Below are positions 41,397 to 64,000 of a DNA stretch of 64,000 bases, piece by piece. Source of the stretch: Podospora anserina. Taxonomy: Eukaryota. The first letter of the stretch is position 1. Each line of letters starts with the position of its first letter. Under the pieces are notes generated by a model that had not been told where the DNA came from, made no database searches, and worked only from the letters and a program-made list of their open reading frames with translations. Made by a program: the position numbers and the translations under genes. Location: positions 2,666,001 through 2,730,000 of the forward strand of contig CM030334.1 of assembly GCA_017654855.1 (NCBI GenBank), given 5' to 3'.

Positions 41397-44300
41397 ATGG
41401 GGAAGATCACCAAAACTATGCAGTCTCGGCACAAGGAGACCTTGGTAAGCTTCAGTCGTGCTAGCTACCCCGCTGGCTGTGCCCCTCAGTCCAGATATGC
41501 TAACTTTGTGTGTGTGGTAGTCGCCGTGGCTCGAGAAATATGTCGAGGAGACAACCTCAACACCATTACCACTTCTGCCCAAGAAGCTTGGCGAGTTCCC
41601 AAGTAGATGGCCATTCCCGCGCGGAGACTTGTACCACTGGATTCCGCTGCTGAACCGCTTTGACAATATCTTGGAGGCTTTTTGCGCCACCCACGGCTTG
41701 AACGAAGGCTTCCAGACAAGGGATTTCACCTGCGAGCTTCTGTTGAACCAGGCGGCGCCGGTAGAGTACTGTGATGACCAGCCATGGAGCAAGGATCGTC
41801 TCGGCCAGCTTGGTTTCGGGGAGGATGGAGATTGCCAACTAATCATCGCCATACTCAACTTTTCACAGATGCTCCTCCAGCACTGCGGAAACCGAAGCAT
41901 ATATGGGAGTAGCAGCCGTCTGAACGACTTGTTGAATACCACATCTCTCACTCTTGTTCGTGCCACTCTTGAGGTTTCCCTGGAGCTTGCTCAGCGGTAT
42001 CATGCGTCTATGAAGCGCGTGACGCAGCCCTCTCGCCAAGTGAGCTCAGCCCTGCTTGCCAATCACTACAACATTGAGTTGGACCGCGTCAACCTGCTGG
42101 CTCAACCATTTGTCAAGACACCTGTGGCCCCTGTTGCTCGGTTCACCGATGTTCCACCTACCACCCCAGGCGCCCCCACGAGCAAGGCCAAGGACAAGAC
42201 GTCAGGCGCCAGCTCCAGGAATGTGGCATCCATGTATGCCAACGATTTGGCTTCATTGGTGGTTCAAGGATCTACTGATGAAAGTCGGTGGAACGGCTGG
42301 GGCGACCTCAAGGTCGTCTATTATCCCAAGGCTGAAGGCACAAAGACCCCAGCACCAGAGGCCCAATCGTCAGACCGTGCATCTTCGTCCACCATTCCAC
42401 CAACTCCCACGCCTCTCCGACGCAGCGCCACCAGCGTCTCACAAACCCCCCGCTCGAACAGACCGTCAGGTCCTGATGACAGTCCCTCCAACAGGCACGG
42501 TAACGGGGACGATCATGCCCCCTCGGGGCCCAAGACACTCGAGATCCGTCAGACTGTGCTCAAGTCGACATCTATCTATGATCTCCTCAAGCAGTGCCCT
42601 GACGACATGCCCGCAGCTTCGAGATATGAGTTTTTGAACCGTCTAAGAATCGCAAAGGCGCTTCTTGGCTCAACCGAAGACAGACGCCAAGCCCTGGCTG
42701 TTCGTCTGCTGGCCATCACGAACCTTGCTTCCATCCACCACGAGCAAACCTTTATCGAAAAGGTCCTGAAGCAGGACAACGATGAGCCTCGGAAATACCA
42801 GTTGGTGTACCAGCTTGCCGAGTTGATTCACCCTTCAGTCGACGGTGCAGAGGACACCCCCTTGTGGCTACAGGCCATTGCGCTCGGGACACTGGAGGGC
42901 ATCGTTGGCATCCAAGCCAAGTATCAAGACATCGTGTCCGCTCTGAATGCGAACGTTAATCACGGCGTTCTCATGTATGTGGTTCGCAAGGCTGTTGCCA
43001 GCATGAAGCAGGACGACCCCGACATGGACAACGGCAAGGTCACGGATGCTGACAAGTGGCGTTCGAAACTGTTCGGTCTGGCTCTCCACATGATTGTGTC
43101 GCAGCGGATAGGCCCAGAGATGACCTCCAACGGACTGCTGGAGGTGCTGATTGAAATTCTCAAGCTCCGCACCAAAACGGCACAGCTCAACTGGAGCATG
43201 GTTGTGGCTTTCCTCGACACGATCGTCTACAACTACACGGTGGCGTTCCCGGCACTCAGCAACGCCTCGGGCCTCGACGCCATTGCCGACCTTATCATCC
43301 ACGTTGTCCATTCATCCAAAGAGCTGGCAGAAAAGGGACTAGGGACCAAGCCCGAGTTCCACGCGCAGCTGGTCGACTATGGAATTCCCTTCTATCATCA
43401 GCAGACGGTGAAGTGGCTGCTTAAGTTCCTCCATCACATTCTGCAGAGCCCGCTCTCGTTCGGTGCCAATACAGACCGCTTGTTGAGAAACCTGGTCGAC
43501 AACTCCAAGTTGCTGGTCAGTCTCCGTACCGTCATTGAAGAGCCGCGTCTCTATGGCTCTGTGGTTTGGACAAACGCAGTCACGCTCTTGAGCGACTTCC
43601 TCAACAATGACCCTACCAGCTTTGCGGCCCTTTCAGAGTCGGGTATGGTACAGAGCTTCTTGAGCACCCTCACAGGTGAGAAGGTTGGCCTTCCTCAACC
43701 AGAGGGCTCGCCAAGACCTGAGGAGAACCCCGAGGAAGCAGCATCGCCCGCCTACTCGAACGACTCGCTGCTGCTTGATAGTGCTGATAGCCGTCCGCAT
43801 CCACCCACAGAAGACATGATGAACGAGTCTCGGGAGCGTCCCCTTGCCCACGGCGTCCTTGCGTCCAACGATGCCATCAATATCATTCCCCAGGTCTTGA
43901 ACTCTATTTCCCTCAACAATGCCGGTATGAAGATGGTGGTGTCGTCAAGGTCCTTTGATCACTTTCTGGAAATTTTCTTCAGCCCCGAACACGTCCAGAT
44001 CATGTCGAGGTCTGACCTTGATCTTGCCGCCAACATTGGCTCAAGCTTCGACGAACTTGCCCGTCATCATCCTCGCTTGCGTCCAACGATCTCTAACTCC
44101 ATCCTCGATCTGACAGCCAAGGTCGTTCATCTCGCCAACGATAAGGCAAAAGGAAAAGGCTTGGGGGCGCGTGGCTGGGGTGCAAACCTCTTGGTTGAAG
44201 ACTCGGAAAAGAATATCTATGCCGCAGATAAGTCGCTGCTTGCCAAGGCAGGCACGCCGTTCTCATCTGGATCCAAGGAGAAAGGAAAAGATGTGAGCGA

Positions 44301-47300
44301 TGATGCTGATGTCGAGATGGTGGATGCGGCCGGCGAATCTCCAGAGTGGGCTCCAGAGGCGACGAAGCGTTCGGAAGAGGTGCATCACGAAGCCACACCA
44401 TACATCTGGGCGCTTTGTTCATTCCTGAGCGCTCTGTTTGCTAGCAACACCAACCTCAAACAGGCCTACGTCAAGAACGGGGGTGTCGAACTCTTGCTCA
44501 ATCTCTCCGAGTCTCCGGCCCTCCCAGAAGGCTTTGATAAGACGACGGCTTCGCGCATGCTCTCGCAAGTGCTTTCACACCTCATAGAGTGCTGCCCGGT
44601 TTTAGGGATCCCCTCTCTTCTCAACCGAATCGATGACACAATCGGTGTGCTTCAGCCACTCATGACCAGAGATGATTCGGAACCATTCTTCGCGCCATTC
44701 GTGTCAGGAGTCTCACTATCGAACGACAAGGGCGAGTGGGATCCGGAGCTGGTTCGTAAAGTGGCCGGTGGCAATGATATCATCAAGGCCATTGTTCGCT
44801 TGCAGAGCTTGGTCAAGACTTCGTACCAGTCCTTCCCATACGCCGCGAGACTGGGCTCGATTGTCATCCCGCCGTGCAATACTTATGATCTGTATGACAA
44901 GCTGATCAAGTCACTTGGAGCACTGCTACGCGACGCCGTGACGGAAGACTTGGCCATCAGGACACTGGTTCCGAAGCGCTGGACAGAGAGTCTTACCTCT
45001 CCAGACGGTGCTGAGCTATCAGTTGCCAAGCTCACGGTTGCCAACAGTGTCACTGCTTCTGAGACTGCACCTGCTGCTCCGCAGGCCTCTGGCACCGAGG
45101 CCTCAGCCCAGCCCTCGGAGCCCACGAAGTTAACCGCAGAGCAACAAGAGGTGCAGCAGTGGTTTCACAAGCAGAATTTCAACACCATCCACGATCTTTT
45201 GAGTTCATTGCACCGCAATGTTCTCCCGTTCTTTCAGACGATGAGCAAAGTGTTGTTGCCCAGACGATTCGACAACTTCAGCCGCTCCAATCAGTTGACA
45301 ATTGCAGAAACCTTGGCCACCACAGTTCTGGAGCAGCTCAGATTTGTCCAAGATAAGCTGGATCAAGACAAGCTGGCTGGACTAGACTTCCATCACTTTG
45401 CCACCACGTTCCAGTCCTTGCATGACATGTTGATTGATGTAACTCGGCAGACGGAGCGTCAAGGAACTGCCCTGCTTCTACCCGTCCTTATCGCCTTCAA
45501 GGAGAATGGCGGTATTGACCTGTTGAGTAGCATGCTCGAGAAGTTTGCTGATGATATCTGCAGTGTCCCAGCTGACTCGACTGCTCGTGAGGAGTCACCA
45601 AAGGTGCGGCAAGCAACGATGGGGATGAAGAGGATCCTGGACATTTACCACATCATTGTTAGCGGCAAGAATGTCACTGAGTCCCTCACCTCCACCAGCC
45701 TTCCCAAGGCTGCAGAGCGGAACCGCGAGTTTGGACATCAGCTCGTCGTGGAGTTGAGGGTGGCCATTCTGCCTGTGGTGCGCAAACTGTGGGAGTCTCA
45801 ACTGGCGGAGAAGGTCGAGACGGTCGTCTTGAGTAAGATGATTGATATACTTCAGACGATTGCCGCTGCCGATTCTGAGTCCAACGCATACCGCAGGTCT
45901 GACAAGACAGGTCCGCCCCCAGTGTTTAAGGATCGGAAGCGTGTGTCGTTCAACTGGGAGGGTGAAGCCAATGTCAACGTCAAGAAACTTATCGACAAGG
46001 GGAACGACGAGGAGCTCAGCCGGGAGGCCATCTACCGCGCGAACGGAAAGCTCGAGGATGCCATGGAATACTGTAGGGCGTTCGATCCTGCGAACAGCAG
46101 CAAGGGATGGGCTTTCAAGCGGAACCCTATCCCAGAAGCGGATGCATACAAGGAGCCGCCTCCGCCTCCGAAGCCAGAGCAAGCACAACCCGACCAAACT
46201 CCGGTGGTTTCCCAGCCAGTTGTGCCTTTGGGAGCAGAGCCAATGGCACTGGATCCCATGCCGGGGATCAACAGCCTCATCCATGATGCTATCGGTGAAG
46301 CCGATTCGGGAGATCACTCGTCTGATGAGTCCAACGACACCAGCAATGAGAGCTCAAGCCAGCATTCCGCACAGGAGGCCCCTTCTACGACGGCTGCGCC
46401 CACACAGCAGGCACCGACCTCGTCATCGGTCGCCGCTGTACCGCCGAATCCCCCTTCGGTTACAAAGGAGGACTTGGACGACGAGCGCGCGCGACTGTCC
46501 AATGATCTAATTGACCGGTGCTTAGACGTCATCAGAGCTCATCCTGACTCTGTCTTTGAGATCTCGGACTTGATTCAGAACATGATCCTCAAGACAGACA
46601 ACGAACAAAAGCGGACCGAGGTCGGCGAAATTCTTGCCAACGCCCTGCTGTCGCTCCATGTGAATGATGAGGCTGACAAGAAGGCCAACGGTGGGACCAT
46701 TGCGGCCTATTCTCATCTCTTGTCACTGTTGCTGCAGAACAGCTCTTTCTTTAAATCCACGCTGCCGACGTTGAGGCAATACATTGAAGAATATCTCAGT
46801 TTTCTCCAAGTTCCTTCGAACTCTAGCGAGGAGCTGCCTCCGTGGATGCCATATGTGCTCCTGGTCTTCGAGACGCTCTTGATTGACGAGGAGCAGCTTC
46901 CCGATATCAAGTGGAAGCCGCCTGCCAAAGAGGAGGACCCAGTCGAGGAGCCTGTCTGGGCTACCAAGGTTCCCACAATACCGCTCAAGGAGCGTTCTGG
47001 TTTGCTCTCAGCGGTCTTGGAGATCCTCCCGCGCATCGGCAAGGAAGAGGCACTTGCTGTCTCCGTGCTGCGGATTCTTGTCATTCTCACCAGGGACCAT
47101 GGGATGGCCAAGACGGTGGGCGAGAAGAGAAATCTGCAGCGCCTGTTTGTCATGGCAAAGCAGTTGTGTGCTGGCGGCTCGGGTCCTCTCAACCGGTCAC
47201 GCATCACGGACTACATCATGACAATCCTCCGTCACATAGTAGAAGACGAAGACATCATCCGCCAAATGATGCAGAATGAGATTCGCCAGTTTCTCTCGTC

Positions 47301-50300
47301 AAGCTCGAGAAGCGGCCGAAACTACGACGCCCAGACGTTCCTCAAACACCTTTCGCATGTCGCTCTTCGGTCGCCCAAGTTGTTTGTGGAAACCACTGGT
47401 CAGCTCGTGAAGCTAGTCAAGTGGTCGGTCCCTGAGGCCAGGGAGTCTTCCTCACGTTCCAACTACCAGATCGTTCTCAAGCCAGCGCCGGCTGCAGAAG
47501 AGGAAGCCAAGCCAAAGGACAGTTCAGTCGAGCCCACGGTTCAGGCGACTGAGGATCTGAGCATCAACGATGTGAAGCCGTCGACAGAGTCTGCCGACAA
47601 GGAGATGACAGACGCGCCCAAGACTCCGCTCGACATCAAGCGTCCTGTTCTTGAAAACCCAGATGGTGTGGTTCATTTCTTGCTTTGCGAGCTTCTCAAT
47701 TACCGAGAGGTTGATGACAAGGAGGTCCCGGCTGTGCCAGCCAAGGAAGCCAGCAAGACTGATAACAAGACTGCAGGCGAGACATCAAGTGCGGAGGAAG
47801 ATGCCACACCGGCTCCCGCAGACGTAGAGGTTCCCGAGCCGAAGAAGGACGAAAAGAAGTCTTCCAAGCCGACCTTCAAGGCAGAGGATCACCCCATTTT
47901 CGTCTACCGGTGCTTCCTCCTCAGCTGCCTGACAGAACTTCTACAGAGCTATACGCGTGCCAAGGTGGAATTCATCAACTTCAAGCGTAGTGCGCCGATG
48001 CAAACCAACACCCCCATCAAGCCTAGATCGAGCGTACTTAATTATCTGCTCAATGACCTGCTTTCTCCAGGTTCGGCCAGCTTGGCAGCAGAGACGCCGG
48101 TGGCTAAGAAGAAGACTTCGACATCTGCTCAGGCACAGAGCGTGCTTGTGGCTCTTGTGGCTCGTACCGGCGAGAAGCCGTATGACCGACACCGTGGCAA
48201 TTGGGAGTATGATGACGAGCCCGATCTTCTGTTTGTACGCCGATTTGTTCTCGACACGGTTCTTCGTGCTTACAAGGACGCTTCCACTCCTGGGGAGTCC
48301 TTCGATGTGCGCTATCCCCGGATGATTGCGCTGGCCGAGTTGATGAGCCACATGATCGGGGAAAAGGACAAAGACGCCAACTCGAGGGGGGCAAGTCAGG
48401 ATCAGGGACTCACCAGATCTTATGCTCAAATCAAGCGGTTGATGTATGAGAAGGGATACCTTGCCACATTGACAGCATCCATCGCCGACATCGACCTCAC
48501 CTATCCCGATGTGAAGCGCACCATCAAACATATTCTCCGCGTGCTGCGGTCTTTGACAAAGACTGCATCGGCCCTGAGTGAGCTGGACATAATTCCTGCC
48601 ACCGCGACGGGTGACCAACCGGAGGACGACTTTGCGTCTGCGTCATCCCTTTCCGACATGGACGACGAGCGCGAGGAAACCCCCGACCTCTACCGCAACT
48701 CCACACTCGGCATGCTCGAGCCCGGACGGGAGGATGATTATTACTCGGATGAAGAGGAAGATGGTATATTCTCCAATTCTGCTGCTCAAATAGACGAACT
48801 GTTACTAATGGGGGCAGATGACGACGAAATGTACGACGAAGAGGTCTACGAGGATGAGTTGGACTATGGTGACGAGATGTCCCAAGATGAGGAGGATAAC
48901 CCTAGCGACGAGGACGAAGAGGAGCTTGGCGAAATGGGCGAAATCGAGGGTCTTCCTGGTGACCCTGGCGTTGTCGAAGTCATCATGGGTGAAGACGACG
49001 ACGAAGATGAGGATATGGACGAGGATGACGAAGACGATAGCGACGAGGATGATGAAGACGAGGTCGGCTCTGAAGACATGGAGGATGTCGAAGACCAAGT
49101 CGAGATCATGGACGAGGAAGGAAATCCCATTGGCGACGATGGTGATGATGGTTGGGAGAGTGAGACGGACGAGGAGGATGAAGAGGGTGAGGAAGAACTT
49201 GACTATGAGGCAGAAGCCCAGAATCTTCATAACGCCCAAATGATGCAAGAGCTCGCGGAACTGGAGTCTATCACCCGCCGTCGCTTCGAGCTCAGGGGCC
49301 TTGCTGCTGCCGGCGATGCCGATGAGCTTGATGGCGAGGACATCCACGAGTTTGACGACGAACACTACATGGACGATGGTGGTCCTGAAGATGACGGTAT
49401 GAGTTTTGTTCTGGTGACTGAGTCAAGATATGGATTACTAACTGGGTTTTCAGAAGAAGAGGAAGAGGAAGAGGTTGACGACGACATGTATTACGAACAG
49501 GGACATCCCCATGATGATTTCCTCCCTGGCAATATTTCCGGTAGTCTCGGATGGGACTTGGCCGTTGAGCCTCACCACCGCGTCCGAGGCGGGTTCAGTC
49601 GAAGAAACCCGTTCCCCGCTCCATTTGGGGTTGGAGATCTGCGGCACATGGGATCCTCCGGTAGGCTCTCTGATTTCTTTATTCGTCTGCGGCAACAAGT
49701 TGGTGCGACTCTTCAACGCCTCGATGATTTGGAAGCAACTTTGGACAGTGTTGAAATCAGCGTTGATGGGGGCAACGAAGGCTCAGAGGACTTGTCACAG
49801 GCTCTCAGGACAGCATCACAACAATTACTTGAGCGCCAACCAGTTGAACACCGTGCTAACGCCATTCCAGACTTTAGAAATTACTTTGGCAATACGAGCC
49901 GCGCTCCTCCCGCAGTACTTGACAGTCAGAGGAACCCACTGCTGCTTCCCAGCCATAGATCTGGCCGAGATCAGTCTCCTCGTCACTCCGACCGACAGTC
50001 TCTTCCGTGGAGCTCTCTCGGGTTACCCGAATCCTTTAGAGCCATGGCTACTCCTGACGGCCCCCTTGCCGTTATCCACACCCTGGTCCAGAATATGCCC
50101 ATTCCCCACGGTGCCGGGCCCGCACTTAGCCTTCAGTTGACCTCAGAAGGACCTCATGGCGAAATCCGTCAAGTTAGCATCCCTTTGGATGCAGTTACTG
50201 GCAATCGTGTTGGTCGCTGGGAGCCTCGGCGCGATGTGTACCAGGAGCCCGCTCAAGCCGTCCAGTTCGTAGCGGCCCGCACTAATGATCGGTGGAAGGA

Positions 50301-53300
50301 AGAAGCCGGTATGATCTTTGGTCCTGCTCATCACGACAAGGTGTCCATCCTTATGGTGGGTGTTCTCGGCACCCTTGCGCCAGCCGCTATCCAGCAACTC
50401 AAGGAGCAGAAGGCTCGCGACGAGGAAAAGAAGCAGAAGGAGGAGGCAGAACGCAAGAAGCGTGAAGAGGCCCTCAAGGAGTACGAGGCCCAGAAGGCTG
50501 AACAGCAAGCGGCCAAGGAGAAGAAGGAGGCCGAGGAAGAAGCAGAGCGCCAGCGCCAGGCCCAAGAACTCGCCGCTGCCGAGACTGCACGAGCAGTAGC
50601 CGAAGCTGCAGAGACGAACCGCGAGCAACAAGCCCAAGAAGAGCCCCAAGCTATGGAAGGTGTCGAGTCTAACAACGCCGCCCCCGAAGCTGCCCAGCAA
50701 CCCGCCGCGGCTCCTACCGAGCGCATCATTACGACCATTCGTAACGGTGAGACGGTGGATGTGACCGACCTGGGAATCGACCCCGACTATCTCGCTGCGC
50801 TTCCCGAAGAGTTCAGAGAGGAGGTGATTGCGCAGACATTGACCACTCGACGATCCGAGGCCCGTCAACAAGCTCCTCCCGAGGGTGAAAATAGAGAGGC
50901 ATTCCAGGAGTTCCTTGAAGCACTGCCCTCGGAGCTCCGGGACGAGATTGTTCAGCAAGAACGTCAAGAGCGCCGGCGCCGCGAGCGTGATGAGGCACGT
51001 CGCCAGAACAACAATGATCCTGCCCGACGACTTGCAGAGGCTGCCGAAATGGACGCCGCGAGTATCCTGCTGACGTTCCCTCCAGCCTTGCGCGAGCAAG
51101 TCTTGTTGGAACAGGGTGAGGACATAATGGATCAGCTGCCACCCGACTTGGCAGCCCAAGCACGCGCTTTGGCTCAGCAAAGCAGCCAGCAATATCGTGG
51201 TCCACCGCCTAATGCTCGCGCCGTGGCCGGAAGACAGGTCCTCGCCGAGCCAGCTGCTGTCAACGACGGTAAGCCCCAGCGCCGCACCATTGTGCAGATG
51301 CTTGACAAGGCCGGCGTTGCCACGCTTCTCCGACTCATGTTCATTACCCAGCATGGGTCCATCCGCAACTACTTGTTCGACGTATTCTCGTGTGTCTGCG
51401 AGAACCGACAAAACCGTCTGGAGGTTATCTCGACTCTGCTTCAGATTCTTCAGGATGGCAGCACGGATATGGATGCGGTTGAGCGCAGCTTTGGTCAGCT
51501 CTCCCTTCGGGCAAAGCAGGCCAAGGAGAAGGATGCCACCAAGACGCCCCAGAGTCTGAAGCGTACCTTCACCAACATCAGCACCCATAATCACCATCTC
51601 ACCAACAACTCGGAAGTCTCGCCCCTTTTGATCGTACAGCAGTGTCTCGATCTTCTTCAGGATCTTGCTACAAAGAACGCTCACATCCCGTCTCTCTTCC
51701 TCACAGAACACGAGACCGTGGCGTCCACACTCAAGCGAAGCCTCAGTCGCAAGGGTAAGGGCAAGGATGTCAACCTAAAGGCTCAGAAGTACGCGATCAA
51801 CTGTCTCCTGGCTCTTCTTGATCGCAGCTTGGTTATGGAGAGCAGCGCTGTCATGCAGCTCCTCGCCGACTTGTTGAACAAGGTCACATACCCGCTTCAA
51901 GCACTCGAGCGGCGACGCAAAGAGGCTGAAGCGGAAGCCAAAAAGAAGGAAGAGGAGGCCAAGAAAAAAGAGGAGGAGAAGGCCAAGGGCGAGACTGCTG
52001 AGCCTGCTGTCGAACATGCCAACACGGAGGCTGTCAATATGGCCAATGTTCAAGCTCCTCCTGCTGCGGCTGCGGCTCCATCTGGCGATCAGCTCACCCA
52101 GGAAGACGCCCAGAAGGATGCCCAGGATAAGGAGACCAAGGAGACAAAGGAGACCAAGCCAGAGGAGAAGAAGGTGCGCCAGCTGACGCCCCCATATATC
52201 CCAGACCACAACTTGAAGCTGGTTGTCAATATCTTTGTGGCCCGCGAATGCAGCTCGAAGACATTCCAAAACACCATCTCAACCATCAAGAACCTTTCCA
52301 ACATTCCCGGTGCCAAGAAGGTCTTTGGCGAGGAACTCGTGCGCCAGGCTAGAGTTCTTAGCGAGAACATCGTGTCAGACCTCAACGACCTCCTCCCATA
52401 CATTCTCAAGGCTGAGTCCGGCACTGAGATTCAGGGCGTCGCCCTGGCCAAGTTCTCTCCTGGTGCTTCGGAGCAGAACAAGCTGTTGCGTGTTCTTACT
52501 GCCCTGGACCATTTGTTTGACAGCAAGGGTAAGGGCAAGAAGGAAGAGGGCGCATCCGAGGCCGAGGATAGCAAGGAGGGCTCCAAGGAAGACCTCCTTG
52601 GTTCCTTGTATTGGAACCCAACCTTTGGTACTATGTGGGACAAGCTGAGCGCCTGCCTGAGCGCCATTCGACAGCGCGAGAACATGCTAAATGTGGCAAC
52701 GATTTTGCTGCCGCTGATCGAGTCCCTGATGGTTGTTTGCAAGAACACCACTCTTGGTGACGCACCTTCGGTCCAGCACAAGGAGCTGCTCTTGTCCAGC
52801 CCGCCCCCTGAGAACCGTATCGCGGGTCTTTTCTTCAGCTTTACTGAAGAGCATCGCCGGATCTTGAACGAACTTGTCCGACACAACCCCAAGCTGATGT
52901 CGGGCACCTTCTCGCTCCTGGTCAAGAACCCCAAGGTTCTCGAGTTCGACAACAAGCGCAACTACTTCAACCGTAGCGTGCACTCCAAGACCGGCACCCA
53001 GCAGACTCGGCCTCAGTATAACCCTCTTCAGTTGTCAGTTCGCCGTGAGCACGTCTTCCACGACTCTTTCAAGTCTCTGTACTTCAAGACTGGAGACGAA
53101 ATGAAGTTTGGAAAGCTCAACATTCGCTTCCACGGCGAAGAGGGTGTTGACGCTGGCGGTGTCACTCGCGAGTGGTTCCAAGTGCTCGCCCGCCAAATGT
53201 TTGACCCCAACTACGCCCTGTTCATTCCCGTGTCTTCTGACCGCACCACATTCCACCCGAACCAGCTCAGCAGTATCAATGAGGAGCATCTGATGTTCTT

Positions 53301-54223
53301 CAAGTTTATTGGTCGGATCATTGGCAAGGCCCTTTACGAGGGCAGACTTTTGGACTGCTACTTCAGCCGCGCGGTCTACAAGCGCATTCTCGGCAAGCCC
53401 GTGTCCGTCAAGGACATGGAGTCGTTTGATCCAAACTACTACAAGTCTCTTGTCTGGATCCTGGAGAACGACATTACTGATATCATCACCGAGACCTTCT
53501 CGGTCGAGGACGATGAGTTTGGTGTGACCAAGACTGTGGACCTCATTCCAGATGGCCGCAACATCCCTGTCACTGAGGAAAACAAGAGCGAATACGTCCG
53601 CTTGATTGTGGAGCACAAGCTGCTTACGTCGGTTAAGGACCAGATGGAGCATTTCTTGAAGGGTATGTGAATCCTGCTATGTGTGTTTTGGGGTATGGCT
53701 TTGACTAACATTTGGCTTCTAGGCTTCCATGACATCATTCCCGAGGAGCTGATTGCCATCTTCAACGAGCAGGAGCTGGAACTTCTCATTTCCGGTCTCC
53801 CCGATATCGATGTGGATGACTGGAAGAGCAACACCGAGTACCACAATTACACTGCGGCCTCGCAGCAGATTCAGTGGTTCTGGCGCGCCATCCGCTCATT
53901 TGACAAGGAGGAGCGGGCCAAGCTTCTTCAGTTCGTCACCGGTACCTCCAAGGTGCCGCTCAACGGCTTCAAGGAGCTGGAAGGCATGAACGGAGTGAGC
54001 CGTTTCAACATTCACCGTGATTATGGCAACAAGGACCGTTTGCCCAGCTCTCACACGTGCTTCAACCGTAAGTTGTGCCTTATTCAGTCAAGACTTGGAT
54101 AAAATGACTGACTTTTTTTTGTCTCTAGAACTCGATCTTCCCGAGTACGAGAGCTACGACACGCTCCGCAGCCAAATTCTCAAGGCTATCACGGCTGGTA
54201 GCGATTACTTTGGCTTTGCTTGA
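41397..54223 (+). CDS. TOM1: HECT E3 ubiquitin ligase TOM1/HUWE1, ~4100-4200 aa; introns 41445-41520, 48764-48817, 49397-49453, 49661-49870, 53663-53722, 54068-54128
   Basis: N-terminal [19 protein letters not shown] region, an acidic tract, ubiquitin-binding-type repeats ([17 protein letters not shown]) and a HECT domain ([15 protein letters not shown]...[14 protein letters not shown]...YFGFA). Confidence 0.97.
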
Positions 54224-55828
54224 TCATTTTGGGGCACGAATTTTGCTATGGAGAGAGAATATGAAGAGGAGAAAAATAAAGAAAAAGCGGGAAAAGCGGG
54301 AATATTTGCTTATAAGAGAAGGATGGAGAAAAGGAAATTGGTCATCTTGTTGAGAATAGGGCAAGGAGATGGTTGCGAAAAGGGAGGCAAAGCAGAGAGT
54401 AGGGGGTTTTTGCCTGTCGGTGCAAGCGTCAAAGATATCCTGTGTATTGCTTTTTATTTAGTGTGGGGTGGCGGGTGGGCTATTAGGAAGGAGGAAGGAG
54501 TTTTGTAACTGTTTTTGTTTTATTTTGTTTTGTTTTTTTTTCATGTAAAGGCGCACTCTCAGATTGCGGTGGTATAGGCTTAAGAGGGTTGGTTGGTGGA
54601 AGATGGGGAGGTGGATGCGGCTCGTGCAGGGGTCCGTGGATGCTTTTCTGTCTGGGTAGTAGGGGAAGAAGTAGTGAATAGAGAGGTTGCCTTATGGTTA
54701 TGACTTTGTGATTTGGTGATGTGGGTGGATGATGCTTGAATACCCAAACTTCAGATTGTAGCATAAACGTGAGCTAGGTTTTTTACATGTGGTGCCTTGA
54801 GCAGAATGGAAAACACCAGCTCGGTTGGCAATATCTGTTGACTTTTTTTGGGTGTAATTACTGCATCCTTATGAGGATAATGCTAAGTTATCATGAAGAT
54901 TCCCTGCCTTGGTGTGTTCAAGTGTATGTGTGGGGTTGCGAGAAAAGGGTTAGCATACATAGGTAAAGATATAATCGTATTATCGAGCCAAGTTGACATT
55001 ATCACCCTGACCAAACCATGAAAATGCCCACCTGATAGATTATTGTGCATGCGACCCAGATACGAGCTATACCAATCGTTTACGCTGCAACCAGCAGCGG
55101 CCCGGGTTCAGCAAAGCCTCTTCCCTCGGCCTCATGCAGTGCCTCGAGTCCACTGCATAAGAAAAGCCCCCCCCCCCCCCAACGGATATCTATGTTCGAA
55201 ACACGACAGTAGTCTCGTTTTCTCGTTTTTGTTTTGTCTATTCCTTGCGTCGTCGTTGCAACGTTGCCACGCAGACCTACCTACCTACCTCAACCAACAA
55301 CTCATGATGGTCGACAAGATCATGTAAGTAGCCCGTCCATTTTTTTTCTCTTCTCACTCCGGCTACCTACCGAACATTGCCCCCCCCCCCCTTCGCTTCA
55401 TCATCACCCCGAACCTACTTCTTTAAAGCAGGCATACCCCATCTTGTCTCCTCGGTTCAAATTACCGAAGATAAATCAACAAATGCAAATCCAGACCGCT
55501 TCCCCCCAAAAGAGCCGCCGCCTCACACAAAGAATAAAGCAAGACAAATATCCCCATCTTCCGTGCGGAAGCCTACTTTTGCCCTGCCTGGATCCATGTT
55601 TGAATGACGTAGTAGGTCCCTTGTTAACAACATTTTGGTTGAAGGGTAGGAGTCTCAGCTACGTGGCAGAGAGACAATCAAAACATGGTTTATCCAAAAT
55701 AATAAGTAATCCCGGTATAGCTGAATACCTGGTAGAGAGAAAGAAAACTGTTCGTGTTGTAAGAAAATGCGGGCGGGTGCAGGTAGGGCGTGTTCGGTAA
55801 GGCAGGAAGGTATAGGTAGGTCTGCGGC

Positions 55829-55861
55829 GGTGGTGGTGGTTGTGGTTGTGGTTGTGGTGGT
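55829..55861. repeat. (GGT)n/(GTTGTG)n microsatellite
   Basis: Read directly. Confidence 0.8.
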
Positions 55862-58578
55862 CGCCACCCCCTTTCAACCCCACACATACATCTACCACGC
55901 TTGTTTACCCATTGGGGGAGGGTTGTGGTTCCCAAAAATAGAATACTGTGTTTTTCAGCCAAAGTCAACAACAACAAAACGTAGAATGGTCTTGCAACAA
56001 GGAAAAAGCGCCGCCGCATGACGACGGTGTTTCGAACAACGGTGATCACGACGCCGTGGTTGTGGTGGGTGGCATAACACCATCATCACCAGTTTCGATA
56101 TGGCCGAGGAAACAAGGACTGGATGGATCGACAGCTCGGCTCTTGAGTGTGCAAATGCCCCGATAAGGGTTAATCCCAGGCCACCCCCTACAAGTCTGGG
56201 GGAGGCGTAAATTCTTGGTGAGACACCAGGTGATTGAACGAAGAGGTAAGAAACAGTTGTTCGACAATGCAAAAAAAAAAGGAAGGGCTCGGGTGTTGTT
56301 GTGTGACCCTCGAGCCAGGATTGTTTGCCAATATCTCGTTGTTGTGACCCTTGGTTTACGGAGTAGGCAGGTGGGTGGTGTTCCTGGCTGGCAAGGCCGA
56401 AGAGGGAGAGATATCGGTGGGAGAAGTTTGTTATAAAAGACCTGGTTGATGTGGTCAGCTGTCTAAAAGTCGTGATTAGCTGGCTGATTGTGAAGTTGTC
56501 ATCTGATAGAATAGGTAAGCTAAACTAAACTGAAACAGAAGAGAGAACGGGTGCTGTCAGGATGGCCACCATATAGAGGGATGATGCTGCCAAGCGGGCG
56601 GACTCGTGATAGGGTATGGCGAGCTCGACGAAAATGCTGTCGACGGGTGCAATGCAATACGGGAATCTGAGTCGCCCTCGGCTGCAACCAAATCTCAATT
56701 TGGACAGACTCTCTCTTGTCCCAAGGACCAAGATCGGCGATTTCTGCCCCTCTGGCGGGCGCGAGATCTGTAGAAGGCTCCCAGTTACAAGGCCAAGAAA
56801 TGATCCAGAGAACATTGGACGAAGGTGCTACCACAGCATTGTATCACTAGGTCCGTGCCAGACCGGCCGAGCAATAACAAAGACTCTCCCATTTGGACGC
56901 ATGGGGGGCTCCTGGCATGTCAAGAACAGGAGTGTGAAACATGGCCTTCGTCCGTTTGGGAACAGTTGGTGTAGTCAGTGCAGTGCAGTTTTGAATGCAC
57001 CCTATTGGGGCCATCACTCAGCAATCCGCGGCGACGTGATGCAGTATATGCGATATATGCGAGGTGAGCTGACTATGACCCGCCAACTTGGTTCCATATG
57101 ATTCCGTGATTCCCACACAACTCCGGGAGAAAGAAAAGAAAAAAAGACGGTTCGATGGTCGAGACTGTCGACCCTTTGATGCAACGTGAGTGGTTGCGAG
57201 ATTCAAGGTTCGGTGCGGAGCAGAAAACGGGGACCCACCTTCTGGGAGAACAGGGATCCAAAAGTGGTCACGGCATCTGCCGGGGGTCACGACGGTCCAC
57301 CAGATCGATCTCACTCTGGTGACCCTGGGTTTGGGATTTCATGGGGGAACGCTGCTCTCACAGACTGGAATCACTTGTCATATTTGCCTCCAGTCGAATT
57401 GGGAATCTCAGTCAGCAAAGCTCAGTTCGAGAGAGCTCCGTGATGTCCGGTGAGTGCTGGAGCCTACGAGGTGGGCTTGCGGCAACACACGACGTCTATC
57501 GTGTCAGATAGGGTAGTGTCCATTGGGGTGGTCTTCAGCTCGTTACCTAGCCACTCTCATCTTGATATTTTCCCACCAAGACCCATCGATAGGACGGAGT
57601 GGACGGAACTGTACCGTCAATATAGGACATGGCTGATACACAGGTGTTGCTTCTTGGTGCCCGCTCAGGCCGGTGCCCGTTTGCGCACGCCCTGCAGTAG
57701 TGCTGCACCTATAGTGCTATCTCCGGCCCCCAGCGTGGCACGGCCGACTGCCAACTGCTTCTCTTATCCTTCAAGAGATCATCGCATCTCGACCTTCTAG
57801 AGGTTCTAGAGCTTCTCTGCCCTCCGCACGCCGTCTATCCGTAGTCTCACTTCCTCGGTGTGGCAAAGTGAGACGAAAAACTGGGACCTGAGCTGAAGAT
57901 CCGCCAAAGAGACGAGAGGCTGTCGACATCGAGCCTCCCCCTTTCCCTCGGGATGTGCCTCATCGTGGTTGGCTCCTCCGCCGTCAGCTTTTCTCCTGCG
58001 CGACATGTGCGAACAGGGCGGCCGGGCCCTAATCTGCATTTTTCTTGAATGTGGCGTCACGGAATGGAAGGCCATGTATTTGTCCAGTTCTTGATGAGCG
58101 GCCGAGAGTCGGTAAGCCACCGAAGTGGCAGCTCTTCATAGGTGTCCAGGGCCGCATCCGCTGGCAATTCCCTTCAGCCGATGGCTTGTGTTGTCTAGTA
58201 GAGGTGCCCCTTTTCCCCTCTCCCCGTTGCCCCTATCTTTGCTGTAGCCAAGCAGATGTCGACATCAAAAGTCACCTTCTGGAAACAAACTGGCACTCGG
58301 TGGGAAAAGATGGTAGGATAGAAAGACAGCGCCCGGACCATCCCTTACGAAATTGGGGCTGCCAAGACAGGCACACATACCCGCCATGGCGCGCCGCTTC
58401 CCCTGTAACCCCTCACCCCCTCACCCAACCCCAGCTGTGCAATGCACAGCACCAGCACTAAAACGGCATGTAGGTTCTTGCTGTAGCGGTGCCCGGGCCT
58501 GTGTCAAGCCTTTCCGGCACGGATACAACCCGTCCCATCCAATCCAATTCAATTCAATCCATCCCATCCATTCCTCTG

Positions 58579-58640
58579 GCTTCTGCTTCTGCTTCTGCTT
58601 CGGCTTCTGCTTCTGCTTCCGCTTCTGCGTCTGCTTCTAC
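58579..58640. repeat. (GCTTCT)~10 degenerate hexanucleotide repeat upstream of the SFL1-like gene
   Basis: gcttctgcttctgcttctgcttcggcttct..., read directly. Confidence 0.9.
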
Positions 58641-59654
58641 TTCCATCTTCCTTCCATCTCTCCTCCACCTCACCTCGGTCCTAAGTCCCGACCCTAATCA
58701 ACATCACTCGAGAATCACGCAAGCCTCCAGACAGTATAGGTTTTGTTTGCATTGGTGGTCCCCCGGATCGTCTCCAGTGCCTGAGTCTCTACCAATCAGC
58801 CGACATCGACAAGACCACGGTCCCATCGCTTGAGCTCCGAGTCTTTGCGCCACCACGAACAAGACAAAAAAGACGTCTCTCTCCTCCTGCTCACCCCCCC
58901 CTCTCTCTCCCACTCTTAGCCCGACGTGAACCTGCCGTCTTTTTTTTTCTCGACAGGTAGATTGGTTTTTTGGTTGTTTTTTTTTTGCTTGGTTTTTTAT
59001 ACTCGGCCGCCACCCTCCCACAACGGCTGCCTTACCAAACTGTCCGTCTACGCTGTCCTACCTACCACCGCTCCGGTCCCCGCTAGCCACTGAGCTACGA
59101 GCTACGACACACGTCTGACGATCCAAATCCATTGCCGAAGAACGTTGACCTCTCCGCTTCTTCTTTTTTCTCGCGGAGCAGCCCGTCAAGTGTGTTTCGG
59201 CGGCGCGTGCTCTCCAGGAGCTGGTGTTGGAAAGCGGGTCCAAGCAAGCTATCTAGGAGCTACGGCAGTGCGGCAAGGAACAGGGAATCCTCCCCAAATT
59301 CGTCGGCAAAGCTATTATCGACAGATCGCCCAGCGCGCGATTTGCCCACTCGACAACCCATTGACATCTCCCAGGAAGCTATGAGGTAGGCCCGAAGCCC
59401 TCTCCCCGACCCAATTGCACGCCCGCCGGACGCTGTTGATGCTGCGAGCTGCACATTGCACATTTGCACGTCCAAGACGACGGAAAGACCCGCACCGGCA
59501 TATCGAGCACATGCGCCGGTCCCTGTTTCGGGCGGGTCCTTTTTCTGGAGTCCTCTCCCAGGGTTTTCCATTTGTCGCGCCGAGTTCGCGATGTTGCCCG
59601 ATGTCGCTTGCGCCCTCAAGTTGCTGACGCCTATTTATATGAGATATAGGGCAG

Positions 59655-61680
59655 ATGGCCGCGGCTATTGATCGAGCGCCGAGGAATCATTTGGACGAAG
59701 GGTCTGAGGACTCGATGGGCGCGAGGACGATACCAATCATTGCGCCTACCATCCAGATGTCTGCACCCTCTCCGGGCGAGCCCATGGACATCACCACCCC
59801 TACGAACTCCTCCGCACCCCAATCTGCCACCAAGAGCCCCGATAGCGACGTGAATGCCAGCGGCGGCAACGCCAGTAACGAGTCGAACGAGCGTCTACAG
59901 CCCATCCAGGCCCAGATCAACAGCAATCACCACAACCATCAAGCTTCCTCCGAGAACAACATCACCATGCCGGCCCCCGTAGCCGCAGCCCCGGCTGTCC
60001 ACCAGCCCAAGATTGTTCAGACAGCCTTCATTCACAAGCTTTACAAGTATGGTGCCTCGCCAATCCACTCGTACGGCCATGGACGGATACTAAATCATGT
60101 GATAGCATGCTGGAAGACAAGACGATCCAGCACCTCATTTCTTGGACCCAGAGTTCCGAGAGCTTCGTGATGCAGCCCTCACATGAGTTTTCCAAAGTGC
60201 TAGCGTATGTTGACTTGAACAGCCGCCAATTGCATTTTCTGACGAGTGTACAGGCAATATTTCAAGCACACCAATATCTCTTCATTTGTGCGGCAGCTCA
60301 ACATGTACGGCTTCCATAAGGGTAAGCATTCGGCTGTTCTATTTTTATCCAGTGAGATAGAGTGTTGATAATGGCATAGTGAGTGACGTGTTTGCTCATG
60401 GGACTCCCGACTCGACCATGTGGGAGTTTAAACATGGGAACGGCAACTTCAAGCGGGGAGACCTGGTTGGTCTGCGGGAAATCAAGCGCCGGGCCTCGCG
60501 ACATGCGCTGGTTCACAGAGAGTACAGCAACCAGAAGCCACCGCCATCTCAGCCTGGCACTCCGGCCGAGCCAATGCCTCCCATGCAAGAAGGCGGCGAC
60601 CCCAGGGTGAACAGCATCGAGCACACTCTCTACGACCTCAGTGCTCGTCTTCAGCGCCAAGAAGAAAACTCGCAGTTCATGCAGATCAAGAACCAGGCCA
60701 TCATGGACACGGTAAGCCGGCTGCTGCAGTTTAATCAAGAGCTGTCACGCGCCGTGATGGCCCTTTCGCCGAGCCCTGATAACCCGATACACCGGGACGG
60801 TAAGTGCTGGCTGCATCTCGGAGCTTTTTTTGGTACCAGGATAGCCTAATATTTTCCGTTTTTAGTATCATCACTGCAGATCGAGGTGCAGCGGCAAATG
60901 GAGATATTCCGCAGCCTCGAGGAACCCCACGAGCCGTTGTTCGCCAGCACCCGTCCCTACTTTGCCAACATCGAAAACGCGCCCGTCTCGCCTCGCCAGT
61001 TGCCCCAGGACGATCCCCGCAGGTCTAATCTCGCAGTCCCCCAGCCCCGAGGGCCAAATTATTACCATGACCACCGCCCCGCGGTGCCTTCTGGGTTGTC
61101 GGTGAGCACCCGGAGACCATATGGTTCGATAGGAGGAAATTCCACAGGCCAATCTTCGCCGTCTTCCAATCGGGCCCCTGCTCCGCCGCCACCGCCCGGG
61201 CCACACCACCTGTCAAATCCCGATCTGCATCCCGGTGCTCTGGGTCGAAGGCACACCTCGGCTGATATCCGTGCTCATGGTTGGCAACCCCAACCACCTC
61301 CCCCGTTTTCCGGACCACCTTCGTCCCAATGGCCATCGTCACCCAGCCGGCTCCCACCACCCCCCGAGAGCCAGCATCTCAGGGATACCTTTTCTCACTA
61401 TTCTCTGCAACCCTCGTCCCAACCTCATTCCCGTCCAGCCACTCCCCCAGCGCCCCCATTTTCCAATGGAAACCCACCTGCCGCCGACACGTTTAACAAC
61501 TGGTCCTGGAACTCTGCCAATCGGGAGAATAAGAACCTGTCGGTGAGGGATCACTCGGCGCCGCCGACGAGACGGGGAAGCATGGCTCATATTTTGAACC
61601 CGACTGACACGGCTGAGAGGGAGGATGAGGATATGGACCCCCGGGGTGATGACGACCGAAAAAGGAAGAGGCTGCAATGA
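59655..61680 (+). CDS. SFL1: HSF-type DNA-binding transcription factor, SFL1-like (~597 aa); exons 59655-60046, 60106-60204, 60254-60321, 60380-60799, 60866-61680
   Basis: Spliced DNA-binding domain QTAFIHKLYN|MLEDKTIQHLISW...[29 protein letters not shown]...WEFKHGNGNFKRGD, PKA-type sites RRHTS and RRGS, and MAHILNP. The SFL1 name rests on family resemblance. Confidence 0.85.
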
Positions 61681-62046
61681 TTTTTTTCCTCCAACGTCTG
61701 GTATTATTTTCGAACAAAAATCTGCTTTACATCTTTGATTGCATACAACAAAAACATTACTTAATTTCTGTTTTTTCTTCTGAATTATTTCTCGGGTAAC
61801 AAAAAAGCATTTATTACTTTGAAGATACCTATTTTTTGGGGAGGGGGAGGGGGGGGGAGTAATGGGATTGGTGGTGGTTTGGATTTTTTTCTTCATCTTC
61901 TTTCCCTGGAAAATGTTGTTGTTTTATTTCTCAGGAAAGGTGGGGAGGCGGCCAAATTTGTTTGTTTGTTTGTTTGTTTGGGTGGTGGTGGTGGTGGTTT
62001 GTTGGGGATATCTTGTTGTTGGATGTTATGTACGAGTTTTTTAACT

Positions 62047-62185
62047 TATAGATCCGCGATACCCTTTGGGGCTGTTGTTCTCTTTTGGGTGTTTCCTCCA
62101 CCAGGTGTGTCTGATTGGATTAGAACACCTGGTGGAGGAATCGCCTGAAGAGAAGAGCAGCTGCAAGGGGTATCGTGGATCTATA
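62047..62185 (+). ncRNA. Long fold-back RNA hairpin (~64 bp stem), candidate milRNA precursor or structured 3'-UTR element
   Basis: Arms 62047-62115 and 62119-62185 pair over ~64 bp, including a perfect 16-bp core (TTCCTCCACCAGGTGT/ACACCTGGTGGAGGAA) and 8 G-U pairs. The inverted repeat is certain; RNA function is inferred. Confidence 0.55.
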
Positions 62186-62935
62186 TTTGTGTTGTAAGCT
62201 TTGTACGATCTGGGGGGATGGGGAGATAGTTGAGAGTTGAGAGTTGTGTTCAATTGGATTTAAGGTTTGGTTGATGGTGATTTGTGTTTTTTGATGTTTG
62301 CTTTGATAATGGTGTACCGGTTGGCCGGTTGGTGTGTTTGGGAAGATAGGGGGTGGGTTGTGTTGTGGTTGTGTTGTAGGATTGGGCGTTGTGGCGTGCT
62401 TGAGTTTGATAACATATATATATCTATATGTCACTATATCAACAACCTCGTTGTATCCAAAAGTTTGGGCTTTTCCAAGAGAAGAGCAAAGACGTGGATG
62501 ATGATGATGATGATGAGTTGGTGTTTGTCAAAGTACGAGTACACAAAGATGCCGAACATTACTACTGAAAGCCCCGAATTCAAGAGAAAGGGAGCACACT
62601 TGTTATGGTATCATCAAGATCAGATCTGTTGAATGGCAACATTCCTAGTCTAATGGGAACAAACATTAACAGACCAACGAGAAAATTGAACCCTTTGATC
62701 TGATAGTATTGCCAACCCAAGCAGACATAACCAGACAAAACCTTTTTCCCTGGTGTGTTGCCCCTTTCCAACCTATTGTAGAATTTGGTATCTTGTTGCA
62801 CGCTAAACAAACAAAAACATTCCCCATCCATCAATCTGCTCGAAAAAGTTGTTGAAAACCCAGGCATTCACAATCAATCCGTCCCGCTCGATGACATATT
62901 TCCAACCTCCCCCCCTCCCATCACAATAGCCAAGC

Positions 62936-64000
62936 TCAATAATCGACCAACCTCAACCGTTTCCCAATCTCCGTCCGTCTCTTGGCCTGCTGCGTCGCCC
63001 GTTCACTCGCCTTCGTCTCCCCACCCTCGTAGCTCTCCCCCCTCGCCTTGAGCGCCTGAAGCAGCATCCCCGCGTCAAAGAAGCCATCTATTTTTTATTT
63101 TTTTCGTTAGTCATCATCATCACCCATACATCCGTATCAAAAAGGAAAACTTACAACCGCCCAACTCATCATCCTCACTCATCCCCAACAGGCTATCCTC
63201 CGTCGGACTCACGCTCCCATTCACACTGAACCCTCCCTTCCTCCCCAGATCACTGCCGCCGGTGATAAGTCGTCCCCGGAGTTTGGCCTTCGCAGTGGCA
63301 GAATCTTTGTGTGTAAGTTTCGGCTTGGCCTTCATCTCATCCACCTCCCTGGCTCTGCTCTGCTTGCTGGCAACCCCCGCCCCTCCATTTCTCTGGGCTG
63401 CGGTCAACCGCAGGATCCGGCGGATCTCCAAGAGGTAGGACTCAAGGGTATCGACGAAACGCTTGGTTTGGCGATGGCGGGAGGAGACACAAATAGAGAT
63501 GGTCTCGTCTTTGATGATATAGCCTATCCCGAAGCCATCTCCCGACACGGGGCCGAAGCCAAAGTGTCGCAGGGATGGGTTGCCGCAGTTGGAGGTGGAG
63601 AGGATGGTGGTGTTGAGCTTGTCCCAACCCGAGTCAGCAAAAATGAGGGGCAGTTGATGAGATGATCCATTAGGCGAGCGGGAACGGGAGGAGTGTCTAG
63701 ATGAGGCGGAATTGGTCCTGTTGCGGATGACGCTGCTGTTGGCGTCGTCACCATTGGTCGTGCCATTGGTCCCGTTGGTGTTGGTGGTAGCCGCGGGGGG
63801 GGCATGGACCGCAGACGAGGGGGTGGTGCCATTGTCGATAAGGTACTCGGCCGCTCTGCCGTGGGAAGAGCTGATATCAGACATGCCATCTACCGGAGAA
63901 GAGTACCCGTTGGTGCTATCGCCGTTGGAGCCAAAGTCATCGTCAACCATGCGCTGCCAGAGACAAAACAGGGCGTACAAATGACGATCACACCCTTGGG
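62936..64000 (-). CDS. Carnitine O-acetyltransferase (FacC/Yat1 type), 3' part only; exons >64000-63155, 63087-62936
   Basis: Motifs QGCDRHLYAL, IFADSGWDKLNTTILSTSNCGNPSLRHFGFGPVSGDGFGIGYII, spliced LGG|YGFFDAGMLLQAL, and C-terminal KRLRLVDY*. Confidence 0.92.

Follow-up and report, generated by a model that had tools for sequence, protein, structure and literature searches.

The spacer between two convergent genes of Podospora anserina contains a 139-nt inverted repeat that folds into a hairpin. Is this an RNA element kept by selection, or a DNA palindrome that is simply transcribed? The first-pass annotation called the hairpin pre-miRNA-like. It also proposed that the G-U pairs, confined to one strand, reflect selection on a + strand RNA. 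We examined the hairpin, its transcripts and its surroundings in the window, which is the whole 64-kb stretch of DNA analysed. Positions are those of the window, except for seven-digit chromosome coordinates.

A quasi-palindrome between convergent genes

The window is part of P. anserina chromosome 3; six of eight long ORF translations exactly match proteins with cluster mates PODANS_3_7530 to _7600 (S mat+). The hairpin sits between Pa_3_7650 (+ strand) and Pa_3_7660, also named GUP1 (- strand), in a stop-to-stop spacer at 61681–62935. The Pa_3_7650 coding region, introns included, was placed at 59655–61680 from ORFs, PF00447 and published coordinates. It encodes an HSF-type DNA-binding transcription factor and ends with a stop codon at 61678–61680. 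The HSF-type assignment, already made from sequence alone, is borne out by Pfam. Domain PF00447 (HSF-type DNA-binding) matches two exon pieces, 60092–60316 and 60243–60365, with E-values of 8.6e-12 and 1.4e-4. The 3' part of GUP1, encoding a carnitine acetyltransferase, occupies 62936–63998 on the - strand (PF00755, E 6.5e-23). In the accessible part of PMC10100959, GUP1 is the second carnitine acetyltransferase and is probably cytosolic. The last GUP1 intron spans 63088–63154 (67 nt, GT..AG on the - strand), and its joint, 63087/63155, is present in contigs of two sequencing runs. Hence, the plain ORF stop at 63120 is wrong and the true stop is at 62936–62938.

The window and the chromosome differ by an offset of 3241092. 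The same value was obtained from two independent anchors: the Pa_3_7650 stop at 61680 and the spliced GUP1 stop at 62936–62938. Anchoring at the end of the Pa_3_7570 ORF (20542) gives 3241063; this reflects either a 29-nt assembly difference or another annotated end of Pa_3_7570. The latter gene, at 18812–20542, is a second HSF-family member with cluster mates called 'Heat shock transcription factor' (776–782 aa). The region thus contains two HSF-type genes, Pa_3_7570 and Pa_3_7650, about 40 kb apart. Elsewhere, an uninterrupted ORF of 3933 aa at 41869–53670 lies inside Pa_3_7640, which has an annotated transcript of 13.5 kb (3281934–3295480). The exact translation of this ORF was absent from the protein collection searched.

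On the + strand, 62047–62185 folded as one RNA hairpin of 139 nt. Its left arm (62047–62115) and right arm (62119–62185) enclose a 3-nt loop at 62116–62118 (TGG, or UGG in RNA). There are 64 pairs, comprising 56 Watson-Crick, 8 G-U and no A-C. Two 1-nt bulges (T62086 and G62109) and three mismatches (G62069/G62163, G62077/G62155 and T62092/T62141) interrupt the stem, and the arms differ at 13/69 positions. Refolding returned exactly the pairs, loop, bulges and mismatches that had been counted by eye, as well as the 8 G-U and 0 A-C pairs on the + strand. The stem is best paired at its top, 62093–62140 on the + strand. Here, 16 perfect pairs (62093–62108 with 62125–62140, an exact inverted match of 16 nt) are followed by the bulged G62109, 6 pairs and the loop.

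The minimum free energy of the + strand hairpin is -106.6 kcal/mol, compared with -41.1 +/- 4.0 kcal/mol for 200 dinucleotide-preserving shuffles. None of the shuffles was as low (0/200; z -16.2). Hence, the comparison with shuffles that was suggested alongside the original annotation places the hairpin far below them. The - strand also folds (-78.1 kcal/mol, z -13.4), and the + strand fold is more stable by 28.5 kcal/mol. Folding of both strands indicates that the hairpin is, at base, a DNA quasi-palindrome. With DNA parameters, the fold of 62028–62208 has an energy of -54.9 kcal/mol (z -14.5).

We also folded 3193 sliding windows of 140 nt across the whole 64 kb. The + strand hairpin gave the lowest value, -98.8, and the next unrelated value was -62.2 (mean -34.4, sd 9.9). 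On the - strand, the hairpin value of -70.0 was only just the lowest; GC-rich coding windows reached -69.2. A gapless inverted-repeat scan of the 64-kb window identified no second structure comparable to the hairpin. We conclude that this hairpin-forming inverted repeat of 139 bases is real and very stable.

A looser extension of the stem had also been proposed. The outer helix would pair 62030–62045 with 62191–62206 on the + strand, bringing the whole to 177 nt (62030–62206). Watson-Crick pairs account for 10/16 positions, rising to 14/16 if G-U is counted. The helix is present in the RNA fold of 62028–62208 alone, but absent from the wider 256-nt fold and with DNA parameters. The extension to 177 nt is therefore possible but weak.

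Transcripts over the hairpin

Transcript ends for both genes are given in the available part of Lelandais et al. 2022 (PMC9801653). The Pa_3_7650 transcript (+) runs from 3299629 to 3303436, with a 5'UTR of 1120 nt and a 3'UTR of 664 nt. The Pa_3_7660 transcript (-) runs from 3307131 to 3303784, with UTRs of 242 nt (5') and 246 nt (3'). Converted by the offset 3241092, the Pa_3_7650 3'UTR corresponds to 61681–62344 on the + strand and the hairpin, at chromosome positions 3303139–3303277, to positions 367–505 of the 664. The measured distance of 367 nt from the stop codon agrees with the original estimate of about 370 nt. According to the same part of that source, the mean 3'UTR is 303 nt, less than half the length of that of Pa_3_7650. 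The UTRs derive from dataset A, handled there as unstranded (StringTie -g 5 -c 10), with the --rf option for dataset B only. No entry at the hairpin locus was found in the lists of nTARs and antisense transcripts, as far as the supplements were accessible. The Pa_3_7650 5'UTR (approximately 58535–59654) is also long, at about four times the mean of 275 nt in the accessible text. Together, the long 5'UTR and the 664-nt 3'UTR suggest heavy post-transcriptional control of Pa_3_7650.

Any RNA-based role presupposes transcription across the locus, and this was found. Contigs from two runs, X16 and X17, skip the 67-nt GUP1 intron at 63088–63154. Hence, these runs contain spliced cDNA and their contigs are RNA-derived. 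One X17 contig of 623 nt spans 61822–62444, including the whole hairpin, with 0 differences. Its word depth is 25.6, compared with 32.3 for the GUP1 mRNA contig. All contigs are strandless, and that covering the hairpin could in principle be carry-over DNA. It is continuous with no Pa_3_7650 contig. The break at 61822 follows an A/U-rich stretch of about 140 nt, and may mark a proximal poly(A) site.

On the other side, the GUP1 3'UTR occupies 62365–62935 (-). Its annotated end is 62692 (246 nt; TES 3303784). GUP1-linked contigs extend leftward past this point, to 62573 in X17 and 62365 in X16, and still end to the right of the hairpin. The annotated convergent ends (62344 and 62692) leave a gap of 348 nt; the GUP1 contigs reach 62365 and the hairpin contig 62444. 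The 3' ends of Pa_3_7650 and GUP1 may thus overlap and give intermolecular dsRNA. The first 17 letters of the X16 contig, at 62365, have no match in the window even with 2 mismatches allowed. They may come from a chimeric join in the assembly, or reflect an unmapped splice or variant. The earlier suggestion that the hairpin lies within the mRNA is supported by the contig and by the annotated 3'UTR to 62344, both strandless. Placement on the + strand, in the Pa_3_7650 3'UTR, is the better-supported assignment but is unproven.

Composition, copy number and G-U asymmetry

Within the 64-kb window, each arm motif matches the two arms only, and blastn-short finds no further copy. For raw Hi-C DNA reads (X23) at a likeness of at least 88%, depth summed to 24 and 8 in the two hairpin bins and to 43 and 38 in the neighbouring bins. 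Hence, a young multi-copy MITE is not supported. The first-pass annotation had named dispersed copies as the mark of a MITE; that prediction fails for close copies only, because the depth test is blind to copies less than 88% alike and older, diverged copies would be missed. The dip in depth over the hairpin may reflect the restriction-based library, since GATC occurs twice, at the hairpin ends. The same reads contain G>C at 61857 (3/14 reads), in the homopolymer-like (GGGGAG)n tract at 61838–61859; either strain variation or a sequencing error may account for it.

Searches further afield gave no relatives of the hairpin. A metagenome scan with the upper stem motif produced 0 matches, and two protein searches with called ORFs that cross the hairpin produced none. 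With the GUP1 protein as query, 79 metagenome loci were recovered, the top full-length matches having about 59% best-segment identity. None of the 79 has an HSF-like neighbour at E<=1e-5, and at E<=10 the only matches had E>=2.9. Hence, these loci are unusable for orthology. A gapless inverted-repeat scan of the 79 loci (449,634 bases, fungal-type) detected nothing comparable; there was one weak 25-nt case, identical in loci L002 and L017. Our literature search found no description of this element, nor of Podospora MITEs, and the word 'MITE' has 0 occurrences in the main texts of PMC8105982, PMC8092012 and PMC2441463.

The hairpin is compositionally foreign to its G+T-rich, microsatellite-laden surroundings. 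To its left, at 61838–61998, a repeat scan identified (GGGGAG)3, (TTTG)6 and (GGT)6. To its right, at 62228–62377, are (AGTTGAG)2.7, (CCGGTTGG)2 and (GTTGT)4. Cytosine makes up 27/139 hairpin bases (19.4%), compared with 8.0% of 512 flank bases (p = 2e-5). In the Watson-Crick core, G+T accounts for 32/56 bases of the left arm and 24/56 of the right arm, against 0.74 in the flanks. Because of this foreign composition, the hairpin looks like the insertion of a ready-made palindrome. Both ends carry TA/TATA, but these letters belong to the palindrome, and the bases just outside them (T/T and C/T) neither pair nor repeat. Being palindromic, the terminal TA/TATA says nothing about a target-site duplication.

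The case for RNA selection was built on the G-U pairs. However, the + strand has only G or T at all 13 deviations between the arms (8 G-U; the G-G, G-G and T-T mismatches; the bulged T and G). Selection for pairing gives no reason why the five disruptive changes should also run towards G/T; hence, the G-U argument is weakened. We therefore calculated what composition alone would give. The flanks have a G+T fraction of 0.742, or 0.693 with microsatellites masked. From these values, the probability that 8/8 deviations are G-U is 0.092 (0.053 masked), or 0.129 (0.086 masked) under a transitions-only equilibrium model. The probability that 11/11 mismatched pairs are G/T-only is 0.038 (0.018 masked), and that for 13/13 deviations is 0.021 (0.0085 masked). 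All of these take flank G+T richness as a proxy for point-substitution bias, and it is a poor one, being largely microsatellite-derived.

The wobble bias by itself is unsurprising in such G+T-rich surroundings (P = 0.05–0.13). Flank composition falls somewhat short of explaining the complete G/T-ward pattern. This improbability points to an extra force, which would be either a stronger strand-asymmetric substitution process or selection on a + strand RNA. A candidate for the former is transcription-associated substitution asymmetry, which would favour such G/T-ward decay on the non-template strand. Hence, only part of the original argument stands. The 8/8 G-U pattern is real, but the disruptive changes are equally G/T-only and composition goes far towards the wobbles. 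The caveat offered with that argument, that GT-rich composition favours G-U, was well placed, the flanks being 69–74% G+T. If the hairpin is only a transcribed relic, this locus would be a cautionary case: where composition is skewed, an excess of G-U over A-C says little in favour of RNA selection.

RIP was considered as a source of the asymmetry and rejected. RIP changes C to T at CpA, on either strand, and leaves TpA; only 1/8 of the wobble T residues lies in a TpA context, and there are no A-C pairs. RIP is known to act on repeats far longer than arms of 69 nt. It is also weak in P. anserina, according to the accessible part of PMC2441463.

Origin, possible function and known systems

We prefer to explain the hairpin as a palindrome present in one copy, which was inserted or made by a template switch and is transcribed as part of the long Pa_3_7650 3'UTR, any effects being incidental; in our judgement, belief and doubt weigh equally here. 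Any function beyond passive transcription of a DNA palindrome is a candidate one, and unproven. In the best-developed form of that idea, selection acts on a + strand RNA element of the 3'UTR. This could be a Dicer-cut hpRNA or milRNA precursor, or a cis-acting dsRNA controlling mRNA stability or translation. Purifying selection would keep the stem foldable, tolerating G-U pairs and not A-C. Accordingly, all eight transition-type deviations are G-U and four more G-U pairs lie in the possible outer helix. These last are ascertainment-biased, because the helix is recognised only if G-U counts as a pair, and five disruptive changes, also G/T-only, have been tolerated in the stem. For the eight wobbles, composition gives P = 0.05–0.13; for the full G/T-only pattern it gives only about 0.02–0.04, which leaves room for selection. 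So does age: an element that began perfect and now has 13/69 arm differences would be old, and a + strand hairpin that stayed foldable for so long would fit selection. The greater stability of the + strand fold (by 28.5 kcal/mol), the extreme of 3193 windows, and the position inside a published 3'UTR more than twice the mean length, covered by an RNA-derived contig, also argue for an RNA element. Conversely, the stem is about twice the norm for miRNA precursors, no Rfam family matches at threshold, and neither arm is complementary to another window gene beyond chance. The accessible part of the 2008 genome paper (PMC2441463) bears on both sides. It reports orthologues of all N. crassa silencing factors in P. 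anserina but, in that part, describes neither quelling nor MSUD as of 2008. Our literature search found no Podospora small-RNA study. On balance, we consider a selected + strand RNA possible but rather unlikely. In its fullest form, the long 3'UTR isoform of this HSF-type developmental regulator would contain a dsRNA module that is maintained and processed by Dicer. The module could make Pa_3_7650 self-regulating, or its small RNAs could act on other targets; this reading we regard as doubtful.

The relevant transcript might instead come from the - strand, as a long GUP1 3'UTR isoform or read-through, or an antisense RNA. Any effect would then come from a weaker hairpin with C-A mismatches, or from overlap of the convergent transcripts. 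The - strand does fold (z -13.4) and the UTR annotation is unstranded. The GUP1-linked contigs pass the annotated 62692, and the hairpin contig is near the GUP1 mRNA contig in depth and not joined to any Pa_3_7650 contig. However, the GUP1-linked contigs end at 62573 or 62365, short of the hairpin. In the published annotation, as far as it was available, StringTie, allowed gaps of no more than 5 bp, carried a single transcript from the Pa_3_7650 coding region to 62344 and ended GUP1 at 62692. The G/T-rich decay is also what would be expected of a + strand that is the non-template strand under transcription-associated asymmetry. We regard a - strand transcript as improbable. A role at the DNA level seems very improbable. 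Here, a cruciform palindrome between convergent genes would affect polymerase pausing or termination, position nucleosomes, or be a fragile or recombination site. The stability of the DNA-parameter fold (-54.9 kcal/mol, z -14.5 for 62028–62208) and the nearly abutting transcript ends at 62344 and 62365 are in line with such a role. Yet the RNA contig passes straight through the hairpin, which is thus no efficient terminator, and a DNA-level role predicts no strand asymmetry of mismatches.

Under the preferred explanation, a single event most likely produced the hairpin: either a small palindromic element, MITE-like or foldback-like, was inserted here, or replication switched template. The hairpin would lie beyond the midpoint of the Pa_3_7650 3'UTR, which is unusually long, in the gap between convergent genes, and be transcribed along with this UTR. 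Long-UTR transcripts would thereby carry a stem of about 64 bp. The G/T-only decay would reflect the strand-asymmetric substitution bias of a transcribed G+T-rich region, rather than selection for RNA pairing. The dsRNA stem would probably be cut by Dicer-like enzymes, which would lower the level of the long-UTR isoform as an incidental effect. A mere relic of a transcribed palindrome would be ordinary, yet would show cleanly, in nature, the raw material from which new small-RNA genes could arise. Processing and maintenance of the hairpin would instead make it the first endogenous hairpin-RNA or milRNA locus of P. anserina. This genetic model, in which genes are easily deleted, would then also have an endogenous RNAi substrate, its first, linked to the mRNA of a transcription factor.

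How does the hairpin compare with known systems? Precursors of microRNA-like RNAs (milRNAs) were reportedly described in Neurospora crassa by Lee et al. in 2010. Like these, the P. anserina hairpin is a hairpin-forming, non-coding transcript from a single locus, in a Sordariomycete with Dicer-like and QDE-2-type genes. The stable stem-loop expected of a milRNA precursor is present (-106.6 kcal/mol, z -16.2). However, RNA polymerase III is required for the major N. crassa milRNAs, as stated in the available part of PMC3547838, whereas the P. anserina hairpin is in the 3'UTR of a Pol II mRNA and no tRNA gene was found within 55000–64000. Stem length also differs. The accessible text of PMC10710096 gives a preferred stem of about 35 bp for miRNA precursors, roughly half of the 64 bp observed here. 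An Rfam search returned nine matches at E<=1, all to miRNA families below threshold; the best, mir-609, scored 43.9 bits, where the gathering score is 98. These are generic hairpin matches. Hence, 'pre-miRNA-like' is apt for the stable stem-loop, but not for stem size or family membership.

A closer parallel in shape is provided by hpRNA or endo-siRNA loci and by RNAi hairpin transgenes in fungi, as described in the accessible part of PMC4515635. These share the long, near-perfect intramolecular dsRNA stem, which is a Dicer-type substrate. Natural hpRNA loci normally match a target gene; by contrast, matches of the hairpin arms to other genes of the 64-kb window do not exceed chance. Stowaway-like MITEs derive from Tc1-mariner elements and duplicate a TA target. 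With these and with foldback elements, the hairpin shares its size (139 bp), non-coding sequence, inverted-repeat ends (here the whole element), TA at the ends and foreign composition. MITEs are multi-copy; the P. anserina hairpin has no other copy in the 64 kb, and DNA depth is not raised at a likeness of at least 88%. The remaining comparison is with hairpins made by replication template switching, in which a single event can create perfect pairing of a whole, lineage-specific hairpin, according to the available part of Monttinen, Frilander and Loytynoja 2023 (PMC10710096). One arm of such a hairpin is pre-existing local sequence, whereas neither arm here resembles the G+T-rich flank. Composition therefore speaks weakly against this origin. 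Arms of 69 nt would also be a large event, compared with the miRNA-size stems in the accessible part of that work. In other respects, the hairpin resembles those template-switch products, as they are described there: it is single-copy, lies in a transcribed region and has no transposon features.
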